Below are positions 1 to 21,531 of a DNA stretch of 64,000 nt, piece after piece. Under the pieces are notes generated by a model, which was not told the DNA's origin, searched no databases, and saw only the letters and a program-made list of their open reading frames with translations. Position 1 is the stretch's first letter, and every line of letters starts with the position of its first letter. The stretch is from an uncultured Gemmatimonadales bacterium (GTDB taxonomy: Bacteria > Gemmatimonadota > Gemmatimonadetes > Longimicrobiales > RSA9). The position numbers and the translations under genes are program-made. The stretch covers positions 2,304,001 to 2,368,000 of the forward strand of contig OY970192.1 in the NCBI GenBank assembly GCA_963708135.1. The letters are read 5' to 3'.

Positions 1-396
1 GCCAACGCGTTCGGCCCCGGCCGCGTGCCCGCCTCCACCATCTCGCCCACCATCATCCTGCGCGACGGCAGGGTCGAGATGGTCGTCGGGTCCCCCGGCT
101 CGGCCGCTATTCCCCCCGCCGTCGTCGAGACAATCCTCTACACCCTCGACTACGGCCTCGACCCGCTCGAGGCGCTCCGCATGCCGCGTGTGCTCCCCAC
201 CGCGGGCCCGGCCGTCCGCGTCGAGGACGGCTTCGCCGCGGGCGTGCTCGCCGACGCCGCCCGGCGCGGCTACCGCCTCATCCCCACGCCCCCCACCGAC
301 ATGGTCTTCGGCGGCGTCCACGTCATCGCCCGCCGCGGCAACCGCTGGGTCGGCGCCGCCGACCCCCGCCGCGACGGCGAGGTCCGCGGCTACTGA
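1..396 (+). CDS. ggt: Gamma-glutamyltransferase family protein, C-terminal part (5' truncated by the window edge)
   Basis: Open from position 1. Contains PASTISPTII...VVGSPGSAAI and the terminal GAADPRRDG motif typical of GGT small subunits. Confidence 0.85.
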   Translation, partial: ANAFGPGRVPASTISPTIILRDGRVEMVVGSPGSAAIPPAVVETILYTLDYGLDPLEALRMPRVLPTAGPAVRVEDGFAAGVLADAARRGYRLIPTPPTDMVFGGVHVIARRGNRWVGAADPRRDGEVRGY

Positions 397-406
397 GCAC
401 GGACGT

Positions 407-447
407 AAAAAACCCACCCGGGGAGGACGAAGCCTCCACGGGTGGGG
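407..447 (-). terminator. Intrinsic terminator (minus strand; possibly bidirectional)
   Basis: cccacccg(413-420)/cgggtggg(439-446) stem plus inner ggagg/cctcc stem, loop cUUCGu on the minus strand, followed by U6 (407-412). Confidence 0.85.
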
Positions 448-625
448 TATTCACGCGGCCGGTGCCCTTCACACCGCCGGACCCGAGCGGTCCCACACCT
501 CTCGGGCTTCCCGGCGCCCCGGACGGCCGACCCCCATCCGGGCGGCCGCGGAGGTGCGGCCCCGCGGCCGGCGCCCCGGCCGAACGCGGCGGCGGGGGCG
601 CAACTGCTTCAATGATTGCATCAGC
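407..625 (-). ncRNA. Candidate structured small RNA (alternatively a leaderless 50-aa ORF at 469-621)
   Basis: Lies between a sigma70-like promoter (631-659) and a terminator (407-447) and contains a series of GC-rich hairpins. No tmRNA, RNase P or SRP hallmark motifs recognised. Confidence 0.5.
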
Positions 626-630
626 GACTC

Positions 631-659
631 ACGATAGGCGCGGGCGTGGGTGGCGTCAA
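631..659 (-). promoter_or_regulatory. Sigma70-like promoter TTGACG-N17-TATCGT
   Basis: -35 at 654-659, -10 at 631-636, 17-nt spacer. Confidence 0.65.
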
Positions 660-728
660 GGGAGCCGTACTCGCGGGGCCCCTGACCGCCGCCCGCCACC
701 TGGCGCGGCCGGGCGGGCGGGAGCGCGC

Positions 729-1163
729 TCAGGCCAGCTCCTCGCGGGCGATGCGGTTGGCCTCCTTGCCCTCGAAGCGGCCCTTGATGCGCGGGGCGAC
801 GCGGCCCATGACGGCGCCGATGCTGTCGGCACCGTCCTCGATGGCCGCTCGGACCATCGCCCGGACCTCGGACTCGGCGAGCGCGGGCGGCATGTAGTGA
901 CCGAGGATCTCGGCCTCGGCCTCCTCCTTCGCGGCGAGCTCGGTGCGTCCTCCGGCGCGCATCTGCTCGGCGGCCTCCCTGCGGCGCTTGATCGCCGACG
1001 CGATGACGCCCGTGGCGTCGGCGTCGCCGATCTCGTGGCGCAGCTCGATCTCGCGGTTCCGGACCTCGGAGAGCGTCATGGTGAGCAACTCGGTGCGCAG
1101 CTTGTCGCGGGCGCGGCGGGCATCGTTCAGGTCCGCGCGCAGCCGTTCGGTGATCTCGCTCAT
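729..1163 (-). CDS. yqeY: GatB/YqeY domain protein
   Basis: MSEITERLRADLNDARRARDK...IKRRREAAEQ...ELAAKEEAEAEILGHYMP...IGAVMG pattern; start at ATG 1163. Confidence 0.9.
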   Translation of the reverse strand: MSEITERLRADLNDARRARDKLRTELLTMTLSEVRNREIELRHEIGDADATGVIASAIKRRREAAEQMRAGGRTELAAKEEAEAEILGHYMPPALAESEVRAMVRAAIEDGADSIGAVMGRVAPRIKGRFEGKEANRIAREELA

Positions 1164-1185
1164 GGCTTCATCTCGTGGGTCGCGG

Positions 1186-1536
1186 TCATCCCGGAGGCCA
1201 CCGGAGGTGCCGCCCGCCCAGCAGGTGCAGGTGGATGTGGTCGACGGACTGGCCCGCATCGGGCCCGGCGTTGACGACCAGGCGGTAGCCGCTGTCGTTG
1301 ACGCCGTCGGCGCTCGCGATCTCCTTCGCGGCGAGGAACAGGCGGCCGACCAGGGCGGCGTCGGCTGCGGAGAGCGCCTCCACGGAGGGGATGTGGCGGC
1401 GCGGGATGACGAGCACGTGCGTGGAAGCCTGGGGGTTCAGGTCGCGGAACGCGACGGTCTCCTCGTCCTGGCGAACGATGTCGGCCGGGATCTCGCCCGC
1501 CGCGATGCGGCAGAAGACGCACTCCTGGTTGGCCAC
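1186..1536 (-). CDS. hinT: Histidine triad (HIT) nucleotide-binding protein
   Basis: CVFCRI, AFRDLNPQA and HIHLHLL triad; GTG start with a GAGGAGG SD. Confidence 0.93.
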   Translation of the reverse strand: MANQECVFCRIAAGEIPADIVRQDEETVAFRDLNPQASTHVLVIPRRHIPSVEALSAADAALVGRLFLAAKEIASADGVNDSGYRLVVNAGPDAGQSVDHIHLHLLGGRHLRWPPG

Positions 1537-1717
1537 GGCTCCTCCTCCTCTGTGGCGGTGCTTCCGTCGGGCGGAGCTTAACGGCGCATCAGGCGCCGGG
1601 GAAGGGCGGAGCGGGTGCGGCGCGAGACCGATCGAGCCATGGCGCTGCCCCGCGCGCGGGCCGAGCTTCGTCGCGATTCGAGCCCGCCCCACCATTCCCC
1701 GCACCAGCGAGGTCCGC

Positions 1718-2221
1718 GTGTCCCGTACCGATCCGCCGCTCGAAGAGTACCTCTACGGCATCCTCCGCCGGGACGGCTCGCTCGTTCCGTTGGGGCGTCT
1801 GGCGGGGCGGGTGAAGGAGGAGCGCGGCGCCTACGACGCCGTGCCCGCCCGCCTCCGCGCCTGCCTGGACGCGCGCCCGGACCGTTTCCTCGTGGTCGAC
1901 CCGGAGCCGCCCCTGCCGGGAATGGACAGGTGGCCGGAGCCGCTGCAGGAGCGCTACGCGGCGGCGCTCGCGGCGGCGGCCGGCCCGCTGGTCGCGGCGC
2001 TGGACCCGCCCACGCCCGGCCACCGCATTCGGCGCCGCCGGGCGCGCGCCGCGCCGCCTGTCCCGTCCGCGCCGCCCGTGAGCCAGGTGCCGCGGCGCGC
2101 CCTCGGGCAGCCGCTGGTCGACACGCTCGCGCAGTTGCAGCGCACCGCCGCCGCGCCGGAGCTGGCGCGCGCGGCGCGCATGGCGTGGGCGCTGCTCGCG
2201 GCGCTCGGAGAGGACGGGTGA
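1718..2221 (+). CDS. Hypothetical protein (167 aa)
   Basis: GTG with GAGGT SD; protein-like composition (LEEYLYGILRRDGSLVPL...PDRFLVVDP); fills the gap between prmA and HIT. Confidence 0.6.
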   Translation: MSRTDPPLEEYLYGILRRDGSLVPLGRLAGRVKEERGAYDAVPARLRACLDARPDRFLVVDPEPPLPGMDRWPEPLQERYAAALAAAAGPLVAALDPPTPGHRIRRRRARAAPPVPSAPPVSQVPRRALGQPLVDTLAQLQRTAAAPELARAARMAWALLAALGEDG

Positions 2222-17635: not shown

Positions 17636-18715
<1,080 letters not shown>

Positions 18716-18752
18716 GACGCCAAGAAGGCCGGGAGCTTGCCCCGGCCCTCCC

Positions 18753-18989
18753 TCACTCCGTCGTCTCGCCGGCGGGCGCGGCCTGCTTGGCCGCTTCGCC
18801 CCACTTCTGCTTGAAGCGCTCGACCCGCCCGGCCGTGTCCATCAGCCGCTGCTTGCCCGTGTAGAACGGGTGGCACACCGAGCAGATCTCCACGTGAATG
18901 TCGCTCACCGTGCTGCGCGTCTCGAAGCTGTTCCCGCACGCGCAGTGCACCGTGGCCGTCTGGTACTCCGGATGAATTCCCGCTTTCAT
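18753..18989 (-). CDS. rpmE: 50S ribosomal protein L31 (zinc-binding type)
   Basis: MKAGIHPEY...CACG...[12 protein letters not shown]. Confidence 0.98.
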
Positions 18990-19045
18990 CGCCGCTACCG
19001 CCTCGTCTCAAAAGGAACGGGCCCCGGAGGGCCCAAAACCATGAA

Positions 19046-19074
19046 AATATAGCGGGATCCACCGCTGCGATCAA
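19046..19074 (-). promoter_or_regulatory. rpmE operon promoter TTGATC-N17-TATATT
   Basis: -35 at 19069-19074, -10 at 19046-19051. Confidence 0.7.
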
Positions 19075-19116
19075 GCCGCTGGAACCTCGCCCGCACCACT
19101 GCGGCGGGGCCGCCCG

Positions 19117-19268
19117 GTGAACCGTATCTGAAGTTCGGTGAGCACCGAGCCGGCGCGAAGCGCAAGGCGCGAGGAGGAAGGAATAGCGGCGCTATTTCGA
19201 CGACGAGCAACGCGACGGGTCGCGTCCGATCCGCCGGCGAATGCCATCGCTACCCGGATACGGTGCAC
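19117..19268. repeat. MITE/REP-like palindromic element with imperfect terminal inverted repeats
   Basis: gtgaaccgtatctg (19117-19130) matches the reverse complement of cggatacggtgcac (19255-19268) at 12/14 positions; several internal hairpins; non-coding. Confidence 0.55.
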
Positions 19269-19849
19269 TAGAACCAGAAGATGGCGGTGACCGGCACGAG
19301 GTCGGGCGCGTTCCTGATCTTCTCGAAGCGCGCGTCCAGCGAGACGCGGACCTTGGCCACGTGCAGCATCGCGCCCGCCCCCAGGTCGAAGCCGAAGTTG
19401 GTCTTCGCCGGCGGGTTGATCGCTCCGTCGCTCACCATCTGGTAGCTATAGAGACCGCCGCCGCCCATCACGTAGGGGATGAGCGGGAACCCGGGCAGGA
19501 GCGGGATCTGCAGGATCGCGTTCGCCTCACCGCCCGTGAGCCGGTCGTGGCCGGAGGTGGCCTGGGTGCAGCCGGGCGTCACGCACGGCGGGATGGCGGC
19601 GCTCTTCAGCGGCAGCCGCATGTAGAAGCCCTCGGCCCGGACCGCGATCGGCGAGAGCGGCACGTTGAACTGGAGCGCCGCCTGCACGCGGTAGCCGGGA
19701 TCGAGCTCGTTCGTGCTTCCGCTGGGCGTCACCACGCCGGCGCCGATGCCGAGGTGCGCCGGGACGGTCCCCTGCGCGTGTGCGATCCCGGGCAGCGCGG
19801 CGCCGAGGGTCAGCGCGAGGGCGAAGGCGATCGAGTTGCTGACTGCCAT
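19268..19849 (-). CDS. Small outer-membrane beta-barrel protein
   Basis: Signal peptide ending AHA-Q, alternating beta strands (PYVMGGGGLY, FGFDLGAG), C-terminal Phe. Confidence 0.75.
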   Translation of the reverse strand: MAVSNSIAFALALTLGAALPGIAHAQGTVPAHLGIGAGVVTPSGSTNELDPGYRVQAALQFNVPLSPIAVRAEGFYMRLPLKSAAIPPCVTPGCTQATSGHDRLTGGEANAILQIPLLPGFPLIPYVMGGGGLYSYQMVSDGAINPPAKTNFGFDLGAGAMLHVAKVRVSLDARFEKIRNAPDLVPVTAIFWF

Positions 19850-21531
19850 GAACGCTCCTGGATGGGGGCGGGCCGGGGCTGCCGTTCGGAGGCGTCCGAC
19901 CGCCCGGGCCGGCGCCGCGCCCGGAAGATGGACGGGCTCCCGGAGGGGCGCAAGCGACGCCGCCCCGGCGGCTTTCCCGCCCCCTCGGGCCACTCCGCCG
20001 CCGCGAGCAGCAGGACGGCGAGGATAGCCGCTCCGCTGCCCGTGAGGTCCCCCCAACGCACGAACGGGGTCGCGCCAGGGGTGGTCCAGACGGTATCGAC
20101 CGCCACGGCCTCGCGGAACAGTCGCGTCCGGTCGTGTACCCGCCCGAGCGGATCGACGAAGAGGGAGAAACCGGTGTTGGCCGCCCGCGCGATGCCGCTC
20201 CGCGTCTCGATCGCGCGCAGCACGAGGTGGGCGGGGTGCTGCCAGAACGCGCTGGTGCGCGCCTCCCGGGCCGGGCCGGTGGACCAGTCGTCGTTGGTGA
20301 TGTTCACCAGGAACAGGGCGCCGGCCCGGCGCTCGGCGCGGGCGCGGTCGGCGAACGCGGACTCGAAGCAGATGAGGACGCCGAACCGGCTCCCGCCCGC
20401 GCGATAGCCGGGGTCGCCGCTCCCGGGCACGAGGCCGCCCGCTCCTCCCGTGAACGGAACGCGCTCCACGAACGGGACCAGGCGGTGTTTTGCGTACGTG
20501 CGGGGGAGCACCCCGCCTGGCGCGACGAGGAATGCGGCGTTGGTGCGGCCTCCACCGGCCGCGCGGCCGTAGCCGCCGACGAGGATTCGCGCACCCACCT
20601 GCGCGGCCAGCGCGCGCAGCCGGTCACGGATCCCGTGTGCGGCCGGATCCTCCAGGGCGGCGGGCAGCGCCGTCTCGGGCCAGACCACGAGATCAGCCGT
20701 CCCGCGTGGGAGCGCGGCGGTGAGGCGGGAGAGCGCCGAGAGGGAGACCGGCACGGCACGGCCGGGATCCGCCTTCACCGCGGCCGGCACGTTCGGCTGC
20801 ACGACGGCGACCCGCGCCGCGGGGACGAGGCGGAGCGTCGCCTCCCGCCACGCGCCGTACGCCGCGAGCGCGGCCACGAGCGCGAGCCCGCCGAGCGCCG
20901 GGCGGAGCGCCGCCGCCCACCGCCCTCGCCGGGCGGCGATGATGGCGCTCGCGCCGCAGCCGTTCACCAGCACGAGCGCCACCGCCAAACCCCGCGCCCC
21001 GACCAGATCGGCGGCCGCGGCCAGGCGCGGAGCCTGGGCCAGCGCGGTGCCCAGGCCGAGCCAGGGAAACGATAGAGGGCCGAGATGGGCCTGCGCCCAC
21101 TCGAGCGCGGTCCACAGGATCGCCGCGGCGAGCGGCAGCGGAACGGCGGGCCGTGACGCGCGCAGCGCGTGCAGCCCCGCGGCGAAGGCGGCCGTGAAGC
21201 CGGCGAGCACGAGCACGACGGCGAGGAATCCGGGTACGGCCAGGGCGCTCGTGGCGAGCAGCGCGGGAAGGAGCCAGTAGAGCAGAGCGGCGTAGCAGGC
21301 CGTCCCGAGCAGCCAGCCCGCGCCCGTGGCGGCGCGCCGTCCGGCGGGGCCGGGCGGCAGCGCCTCGACGGCCGTGAGGAACGGCACCAGCGCCACGAAC
21401 GGCGCGAGGATCAGATGGAACGGCGGGAACGAGAGGACCAGCAGGGAGGCGGAGAGAAGCGGCGCGGCACGCACGCCGGCGGGCGGCAGCGCCCCGGCCA
21501 CGGCCAGCCACCCGGGGCGGCCGTGGGTCAC
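19810..21531 (-). CDS. lnt: Apolipoprotein N-acyltransferase
   Basis: FPWLGLG, VVQPNV, VVWPETA, KHRLVPFVE, ICFESAF, NITND and RAANTG motifs; GTGA overlap start; unusually long 3' tail. Confidence 0.93.
   Translation of the reverse strand: MTHGRPGWLAVAGALPPAGVRAAPLLSASLLVLSFPPFHLILAPFVALVPFLTAVEALPPGPAGRRAATGAGWLLGTACYAALLYWLLPALLATSALAVPGFLAVVLVLAGFTAAFAAGLHALRASRPAVPLPLAAAILWTALEWAQAHLGPLSFPWLGLGTALAQAPRLAAAADLVGARGLAVALVLVNGCGASAIIAARRGRWAAALRPALGGLALVAALAAYGAWREATLRLVPAARVAVVQPNVPAAVKADPGRAVPVSLSALSRLTAALPRGTADLVVWPETALPAALEDPAAHGIRDRLRALAAQVGARILVGGYGRAAGGGRTNAAFLVAPGGVLPRTYAKHRLVPFVERVPFTGGAGGLVPGSGDPGYRAGGSRFGVLICFESAFADRARAERRAGALFLVNITNDDWSTGPAREARTSAFWQHPAHLVLRAIETRSGIARAANTGFSLFVDPLGRVHDRTRLFREAVAVDTVWTTPGATPFVRWGDLTGSGAAILAVLLLAAAEWPEGAGKPPGRRRLRPSGSPSIFRARRRPGRSDASERQPRPAPIQERSWQSATRSPSPSR

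Follow-up and report, generated by a model that had tools for sequence, protein, structure and literature searches.

The systems described so far that come closest to the element reported here are the CreA/CreR genes, whose crRNA-like RNAs derive from degenerate mini-arrays, and the solitary repeat units known as Racrs, which are RNA anti-CRISPRs. In CreR genes the first pseudo-repeat (psi-R1) keeps the 8-nt handle and the second (psi-R2) keeps the 3' handle. Conservation in CreA/CreR is split accordingly, with the handle retained in the first pseudo-repeat and the hairpin in the second, and the available part of the source also reports I-U examples (10.1101/2023.03.10.532045). Degraded distal repeats are often spotted only by hand, according to the accessible part of a related report (10.1101/2023.03.03.530964). 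Racrs compete for Cas6-type and Cas7 subunits without guiding, as the accessible portion of their description has it, and the term I-G is absent from its main text (PMC10651486). Csb2 cuts 4 nt 3' of the repeat hairpin and stays bound to that hairpin (PMC9638904, available part). One I-G Csb2 copes with changes to the stem, but its cutting suffered when the 5' region was lost (10.1101/2022.08.19.504415, likewise in part).

The genome studied here encodes Cas7g, Csb2, Cas3g, Cas8g, Cas4-1 and III-C cmr genes, with the cas locus at C1:5.104-5.141 Mb. Its type I-G array with a III-C module (C1:5.133-5.140 Mb) contains 67 identical 36-nt repeats and 64 spacers of 34-39 nt. Each repeat opens with 4 nt, forms an 8-bp stem capped by a 4-nt loop, and ends with another 4 nt and the 8-nt handle; its 3' end is TCATTGAAGC. 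Two transposase-like ORFs interrupt the array (C1:5135808-5137025 and 5138396-5139565). For a second CRISPR array, with a different repeat (28-nt core), no cas gene was seen among the ORFs tested over 14 kb on one side, in the region C1:3630000-3649999. One spacer is apparently common to both arrays: I-G spacer 2, 38 nt long, has an exact match over 33 nt at C1:3651680-3651712, flanked by ends of the second repeat. A viral contig carries a two-repeat type I-G mini-array with a terminator directly after it.

The element lies at C1:2.304 Mb, more than 2.6 Mb from the cas genes, in a window (the whole stretch of DNA that was analysed, 64,000 nt) where it is framed by the following features:

1..396, plus strand: 3' end of ggt, the convergent neighbour (Pfam PF01019).
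729..1163, minus strand: yqeY, the upstream neighbour (Pfam PF09424).
631..659, minus strand: sigma70-type promoter with -35 TTGACG at 659-654, a 17-nt spacer and -10 TATCGT at 636-631; about 9-fold genome-wide enrichment at the correct spacer.
407..446, minus strand: intrinsic terminator, a 13-bp interrupted stem and U6.
407..625, minus strand: predicted primary transcript of about 219 nt, its start near 625-624 placed from leaderless-gene spacing.
604..624, no strand: imperfect 21-bp palindrome, from its sequence a possible repressor operator and an alternative reading of the AU-rich stretch.
469..621, minus strand: 50-codon Arg-rich ORF, probably not a gene according to codon use and to homolog and Pfam searches.

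An earlier note had placed a stand-alone unit between convergent ggt and yqeY, and both genes are confirmed by Pfam and are convergent. The sigma70-like promoter that it had read on the minus strand, TTGACG-N17-TATCGT at 659-631, is the single promoter-like site in window positions 1-1500 (shuffle mean 0.0). The same interval holds a single terminator-like hairpin with U6, ending at 407 (shuffle mean 0.2); the claimed UUCG-loop terminator stands as a terminator but not as to its loop, which is CUUCGU and not a C-G-closed UUCG tetraloop. When the genome (5.45 Mb, 72% GC) was scanned, the strict promoter motif occurred 152 times at spacers of 16-18 nt against 13-21 times per bin in five wrong-spacer bins, which indicates that about nine in ten strict motifs are not background. 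The reversed genome contains eight such motifs, and 136 of the 152 sites fall outside core coding sequence. From these 152 promoter sites and 286 terminator sites only 13 promoter-terminator pairs 50-450 nt apart arise genome-wide. Judged by such sequence statistics, the promoter at 659-631 and the terminator at 446-407 are real. The predicted +1 is put near 625-624 because the spacing from -10 box to ATG in leaderless genes peaks at 6 nt. The element is probably a real RNA gene. What the earlier note had called an independent unit overlooked by annotation thus holds as a predicted stand-alone unit on promoter and terminator statistics, its peptide alternative excepted.

Several observations were made in passing on promoters and neighbouring sequence. 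Two other promoter-terminator units with short ORFs, C1:1416126-1416320 (plus strand) and C1:4417988-4417739 (minus strand), resemble amino-acid attenuator leaders, one ORF having a run of Thr codons and the other being rich in Met/Cys codons. Two genomes that belong to one genus have in common an almost identical leaderless ORF of 17 codons, which precedes a hairpin region and then an ABC-transporter-like gene. In several family genomes a TTCAA-gap-TTGAA palindrome, a probable operator, sits right after the -10 box ahead of the same sigma-factor-like gene. No RNA run was among the sequencing runs listed as containing the sequence, and one soil DNA run yielded contigs identical to 754-1049 and 1080-1748 and none spanning 407-659; these two results weigh neither way.

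The body of the predicted RNA is resolved into the following parts:

606..615, minus strand: 10-mer identical in sequence to the last 10 nt of the I-G repeat; 613-606 is the equivalent of the 8-nt crRNA 5' handle, a candidate psi-R1 remnant.
572..605, minus strand: spacer-like segment of 34 nt, largely inside hairpin H2.
601-571, minus strand: hairpin H2, which locks most of the spacer-like segment.
542..570, minus strand: hairpin H3, whose inner 8-bp stem (567-546) plus 4 nt is repeat-hairpin-like, 38 nt past the handle; candidate psi-R2.
518..542, minus strand: hairpin H4, 9 bp, by fold prediction.
476..515, minus strand: hairpin H5, with an 8-bp pairing possible between its apical part and the H3 loop.
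461..475, minus strand: hairpin H6, by fold prediction.

The AU-rich 5' stretch holds the 3' end of the genome's own I-G CRISPR repeat, which the earlier note had missed. Nucleotides 11-20 of the predicted RNA (window 615-606) are TCATTGAAGC, identical to the repeat 3' end at 10 of 10 positions, a match of no more than 10 nt that turned up after many other comparisons had been made. Outside the array the last 10 nt of the repeat occur six times, counting both strands, and one of these is nt 11-20 of the RNA. Within 45 nt downstream of loose promoter motifs the 10-mer was met once in 642 cases, at this very site, for a Markov expectation of 1.7e-5 per promoter. When the first 24 nt of the RNA itself were shuffled 400000 times, the 10-mer arose in 5 shuffles. 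Relatives often carry ATTGAAG-type strings after their promoters, for other reasons.

The second crRNA-like trait is the H3 8-bp stem, which starts 38 nt past the handle, the range in the array being 38-43 nt. Its first five pairs equal those of the repeat and are followed by CCGC, against CCUC in the repeat. A repeat-type 8-bp stem 38-43 nt downstream was found at 1 of 1445 TTGAAG sites outside the array (chance 1.3e-4 per site, by a stem rule that was set post hoc). H3 has a 6-nt loop against 4 nt in the repeat hairpin and is without the U-rich 5' flank. The first pseudo-repeat has no upstream hairpin, only 12 nt standing ahead of the handle, and ungapped similarity of the element to the full repeat is not significant. 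A covariance model of ten I-G repeat types gives the element the top rank within the 64-kb window (15.4 bits, E 0.022, or about E 2 genome-wide by scaling), and a model of the genome's own crRNA unit places it tied third in the window (11.4 bits, E 0.22). The best alignment to either model covers the handle and stops before the stem. In genome-wide scans, with 150 of about 18000-20000 candidates scored, the element is listed by neither model.

The spacer-like segment has no recognisable target. TTN was assumed to be the PAM, which a separate check did not confirm. On that assumption no PAM-flanked target of the pseudo-spacer was found in the genome, where its best TTN-flanked seed run is 8 nt and 58 of the 64 array spacers reach 9-13 by chance. 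It has no match at the cas promoter, and its phage matches are at chance level, none of them convincing. Its fold (-19.0 kcal/mol) is stronger than that of all 64 array spacers. Among the matches read in 250 order genomes (70 of those listed), no equivalent remote unit was seen.

Set beside the available parts of the CreA/CreR reports, the element is alike in its handle from the first pseudo-repeat, its spacer-length segment and its own promoter (10.1101/2023.03.10.532045; PMC9458426; 10.1101/2023.03.03.530964). The hairpin of the second pseudo-repeat may be a further likeness to CreA/CreR as there described; the candidate for it in the element is the 8-bp stem at 38 nt, which neither covariance model uses. 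In the same accounts, however, CreA/CreR lie in or beside cas loci, whereas the element is more than 2.6 Mb away; and their spacer has a match of 10-15 nt to a PAM-flanked promoter site, whereas the element is without a target. The element also differs from them, as far as they are described there, in a first repeat without hairpin, a self-paired spacer and 135 nt of extra structure further downstream. With Racrs it shares an own promoter (within 250 bp) and may share the mode of subunit competition, again by the accessible part of the source (PMC10651486). Racrs as described there are near-complete repeats, while the element shares 10 nt plus a hairpin; they reside on phages or plasmids, often by acr genes, while the element sits beside yqeY, ggt and mutS2 and has no phage or plasmid homolog. 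Since it lacks the target and cas locus of the former and the full repeat and mobile element of the latter, the element would work like these systems without being a member of either.

The preferred reading, tentatively held, is that of a lineage-restricted non-coding RNA with a crRNA-like 5' third that would act as a Racr-like decoy for type I-G. The promoter at 659-631 would drive transcription of an RNA laid out as handle, 34-nt pseudo-spacer, repeat-like hairpin, three more hairpins and terminator. Csb2, a Cas5/Cas6 fusion, would bind H3 and could cleave 4 nt 3' of the stem, giving a 72-nt species if the 12-nt leader were also removed and one of about 84 nt otherwise. The RNA could then nucleate Cas7g and compete with crRNAs, the Racr mechanism, as the available part of its description presents it, serving as the model (PMC10651486). 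Csb2 and Cas7g tied up by such a decoy would mean less assembly of I-G, and possibly III-C, effectors. A decoy is likelier than a guide because the pseudo-spacer is self-paired and without target. The more specific proposal of a remote, host-encoded chromosomal crRNA mimic, which would bind Csb2/Cas7g through its handle and hairpin while its pseudo-spacer is self-occluded, and which the host would keep as an RNA anti-CRISPR to brake its own I-G (and III-C) immunity, is unlikely as it stands.

The rival that survives best, possible if rather doubtful, is a structured orphan RNA, non-coding and with no link to CRISPR. It would be a protein-binding hairpin scaffold of five hairpins, possibly joined by an H3-loop/H5 pseudoknot. 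Its AU-rich 5' end would then be an initial transcribed region or a repressor operator, and its likeness to the handle a coincidence. The four GC hairpins named in the earlier note are all present in the local fold. The five predicted hairpins tile 601-461 almost without gap, which speaks for such an RNA. With pairs limited to 45 nt the core (460-601) has a z of -3.6, none of 500 shuffles being as good, and 1 of 60 GC-matched non-coding control windows is lower in this local-fold test (a second is at -3.4). The core with unrestricted pairing reaches z -2.0 (19 of 500 shuffles as good), the body without terminator z -1.7 (18 of 300) and the whole unit z -2.8 (0 of 200). The hairpin array is hence strong in the local-fold test and weak in global folding. 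The minus strand folds more stably than the plus strand, by 10 kcal/mol, and contains four G-U pairs, which also suits an orphan RNA, as do the 135 nt of structure 3' of H3, for which the crRNA reading does not account.

Against this, a four-way-junction fold of similar energy is an alternative to the hairpin array, and the H3-loop/H5 pseudoknot (P 0.04-0.08 against shuffled loops) was judged not significant. A tRNA-like cloverleaf seen in the global fold was rejected, being without T-loop or CCA and negative in a separate search. In favour of the orphan reading, the AU-rich stretch would find an explanation in the 21-bp palindrome, which is imperfect and spans the start site. No close second copy was found in the genome (next best 17/21), and a shared operator regulon for 604-624 was rejected or left weak. 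The orphan reading also leaves the handle match to chance, at a P of about 1e-5 per promoter.

No known family accounts for the element. The earlier note had seen no hallmarks of tmRNA, RNase P or SRP and had proposed a search of Rfam, 6S and SRP included; Rfam families give no meaningful match at E<=1 over window 1-2000, and over 380-700 the best E is 8.5, with no riboswitch match. The tmRNA and RNase P RNA were located elsewhere in the genome, as was the SRP RNA, by a match below cut-off (E 8.7e-5). The element resembles 6S RNA (RF00013) in size, stand-alone sigma70 promoter and terminator. It was nevertheless rejected as 6S RNA for want of an RF00013 match and of a rod with 5'-3' closing stem and central bubble. 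RF00013 has no match anywhere in this genome; five weak matches in family genomes, none above the Rfam cut-off, are all upstream of queD-folE with promoter and terminator. A 6S-like profile built from these five finds C1:3446887-3447036 (E 7e-31) within a 6S-like RNA at C1:3446870-3447056 (minus strand), before queD-folE, and the housekeeping 6S is therefore a gene other than the element.

The genome has other uncatalogued structured RNA genes, in keeping with an orphan RNA. Among them, a 290-nt multi-hairpin RNA family is similar in its stand-alone GC-rich hairpin array, promoter and terminator; the element is shorter and has no loop motifs in common with it, and a profile of three copies of the family did not match it at E<=20. 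Genes for Hfq, CsrA and Ro60 (TROVE) were not found in this 97.65% complete genome, in which control families were detected. For lack of these partner proteins a Hfq-dependent sRNA, a CsrB-type RNA and a Y RNA were rejected, which takes possible partners from an orphan RNA. Nor does its 5' 24 nt have mRNA targets beyond shuffles (best -24.9, with 14 of 25 shuffles as good). The literature, covered mostly outside subscription papers, contained nothing on this RNA nor on 6S RNA in Gemmatimonadota.

The orphan reading is further weakened in that no homolog was found, so that there is no covariation evidence. The whole unit has no homolog in 72 family genomes, short matches being confined to its GC-rich part; the 5' part has none in 300 class genomes and the 3' part none in 250 order genomes. 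A 22-mer with 3 mismatches gave four matches in 250 order genomes, unrelated on inspection, and a 21-mer gave four in 270 phylum genomes, in coding-like context. The promoter plus 5' motif matched 26 times in 185,579 species genomes, never homologously. An exact 25-mer was absent from metagenomes, and plasmid, phage and viral-pattern searches returned no homolog. A further search gave 87 non-self matches, of which 69 were read and none was homologous. A hairpin match in another genome was rejected, as it sits in a coding region. With a single-sequence covariance model, a weak search of 72 genomes with 36 candidates scored per genome found no homolog; over collected loci the best score was 21.1 bits, inside yqeY, against 209 for the element itself.

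The earlier note had proposed a covariation test on yqeY-downstream regions of relatives. These were collected and lack the element. The 69 metagenome yqeY loci (best identity 72%) likewise lack it. Even the closest yqeY relatives share only 69-72% identity and 36 candidates were scored per genome, so the missing homologs are an absence of evidence. This genome is moreover the sole member of its genus among those searched, and the searches therefore cannot show absence in close relatives.

Fairly improbable is a stranded leader or antisense unit, i.e. an attenuator-like leader orphaned by insertion of ggt, or antisense read-through into ggt past the terminator. Beyond ggt lies a gene that we take by its sequence to be mutS2, so that yqeY and mutS2 flank ggt and the element. 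Of 98 related yqeY loci, 50 have mutS2 within the next 400 nt, 41 are classed otherwise and 7 are too short; the 41 include three in which mutS2 overlaps the cut point and three in which it comes 450-570 nt on. Varied inserted genes were observed at this junction in many relatives. Such variation marks the yqeY-mutS2 junction as insertion-prone and here occupied by ggt and the element, which separate two genes that adjoin directly in 50 or more of the 98 loci, as a stranded leader would have it. It is also supported by most of the other 12 genome-wide promoter-terminator pairs, which in our reading resemble leaders of downstream genes, and by a part of H4 that is complementary by sequence to the 5' terminator strand. 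However, no relative has such a leader before mutS2, the element is found in none of the 98 loci, and no such unit follows ggt homologs of the family among the loci read, out of 24 with a mappable 3' end. Riboswitch matches are lacking, and both mutS2 and ggt come with their own promoter-like elements. Co-travel of the element with ggt was rejected, ggt homologs elsewhere in the family being without the element among the loci read.

Quite improbable is that the element is not an RNA gene at all, the terminator closing the yqeY operon and the promoter motif being a chance or unused one in a GC-rich palindromic spacer. About one in nine strict promoter motifs is background, the body has a weak global fold (the 18 of 300 shuffles above) and no conservation was found, all of which would fit. 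Yet promoter, hairpin array, handle and terminator coincide within 250 bp, and promoter-terminator pairs are as scarce genome-wide as stated above.

The 50-aa Arg-rich ORF at 621-469 claimed in the earlier note is present. Its ATG follows the -10 box by 9 nt, a spacing seen in 2 of the 44 long leaderless ORFs of the genome, and its stop lies 22 nt ahead of the terminator, with a GC3 of 0.86; these points agree with a peptide. Two leaderless genes, which we take by their N-termini to be hutH and ftcD, had been cited for comparison; their spacing is 8 nt, not 9, and a spacing of 9 nt lies in the tail of the leaderless distribution, which peaks at 6 nt. The leaderless peptide itself is not upheld. 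With a codon score of -0.30 bits per codon, the ORF stands at the 0.7th percentile among 1000 true coding stretches and scores lower than every one of the 44 long leaderless ORFs, while 65% of 2905 open off-frame stretches score as low. The CAI is at or below that of 41 of the 44, GC2 is 0.72 and the frame crosses stable hairpins. A search of proteins 27-88 aa long gave no homolog of the peptide at E<=1. The peptide has no Pfam match either, and it is absent from a 15-billion-protein collection in which both neighbour proteins are present. Basic small proteins can have low codon scores, so the peptide keeps a small probability. With the ORF below all 44 leaderless genes and without homolog, a non-coding RNA appears much likelier than a peptide for the unit 407-625, and it is very improbable that the unit is a leaderless mRNA encoding a basic peptide of 50 aa.

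Overall, the original observation is confirmed and an RNA is favoured over a peptide. Should the crRNA-like reading fail, the element would be one more uncatalogued structured RNA in Gemmatimonadota, with an annotation value that is modest without homologs; Rfam also misses the 6S-like RNA in this phylum. The CRISPR-like front end, as far as its sequence goes, hints at a decoy that would dampen the immune system of the same bacterium. If true, the crRNA-like reading would mean that regulatory RNAs derived from CRISPR are not confined to cas loci and mobile elements. Repeat-based screens would miss such an RNA, in which nothing but the handle and a covaried hairpin is left of the repeat. The reading would also carry these regulatory RNAs to subtype I-G, whose handle Cas5 does not hold.
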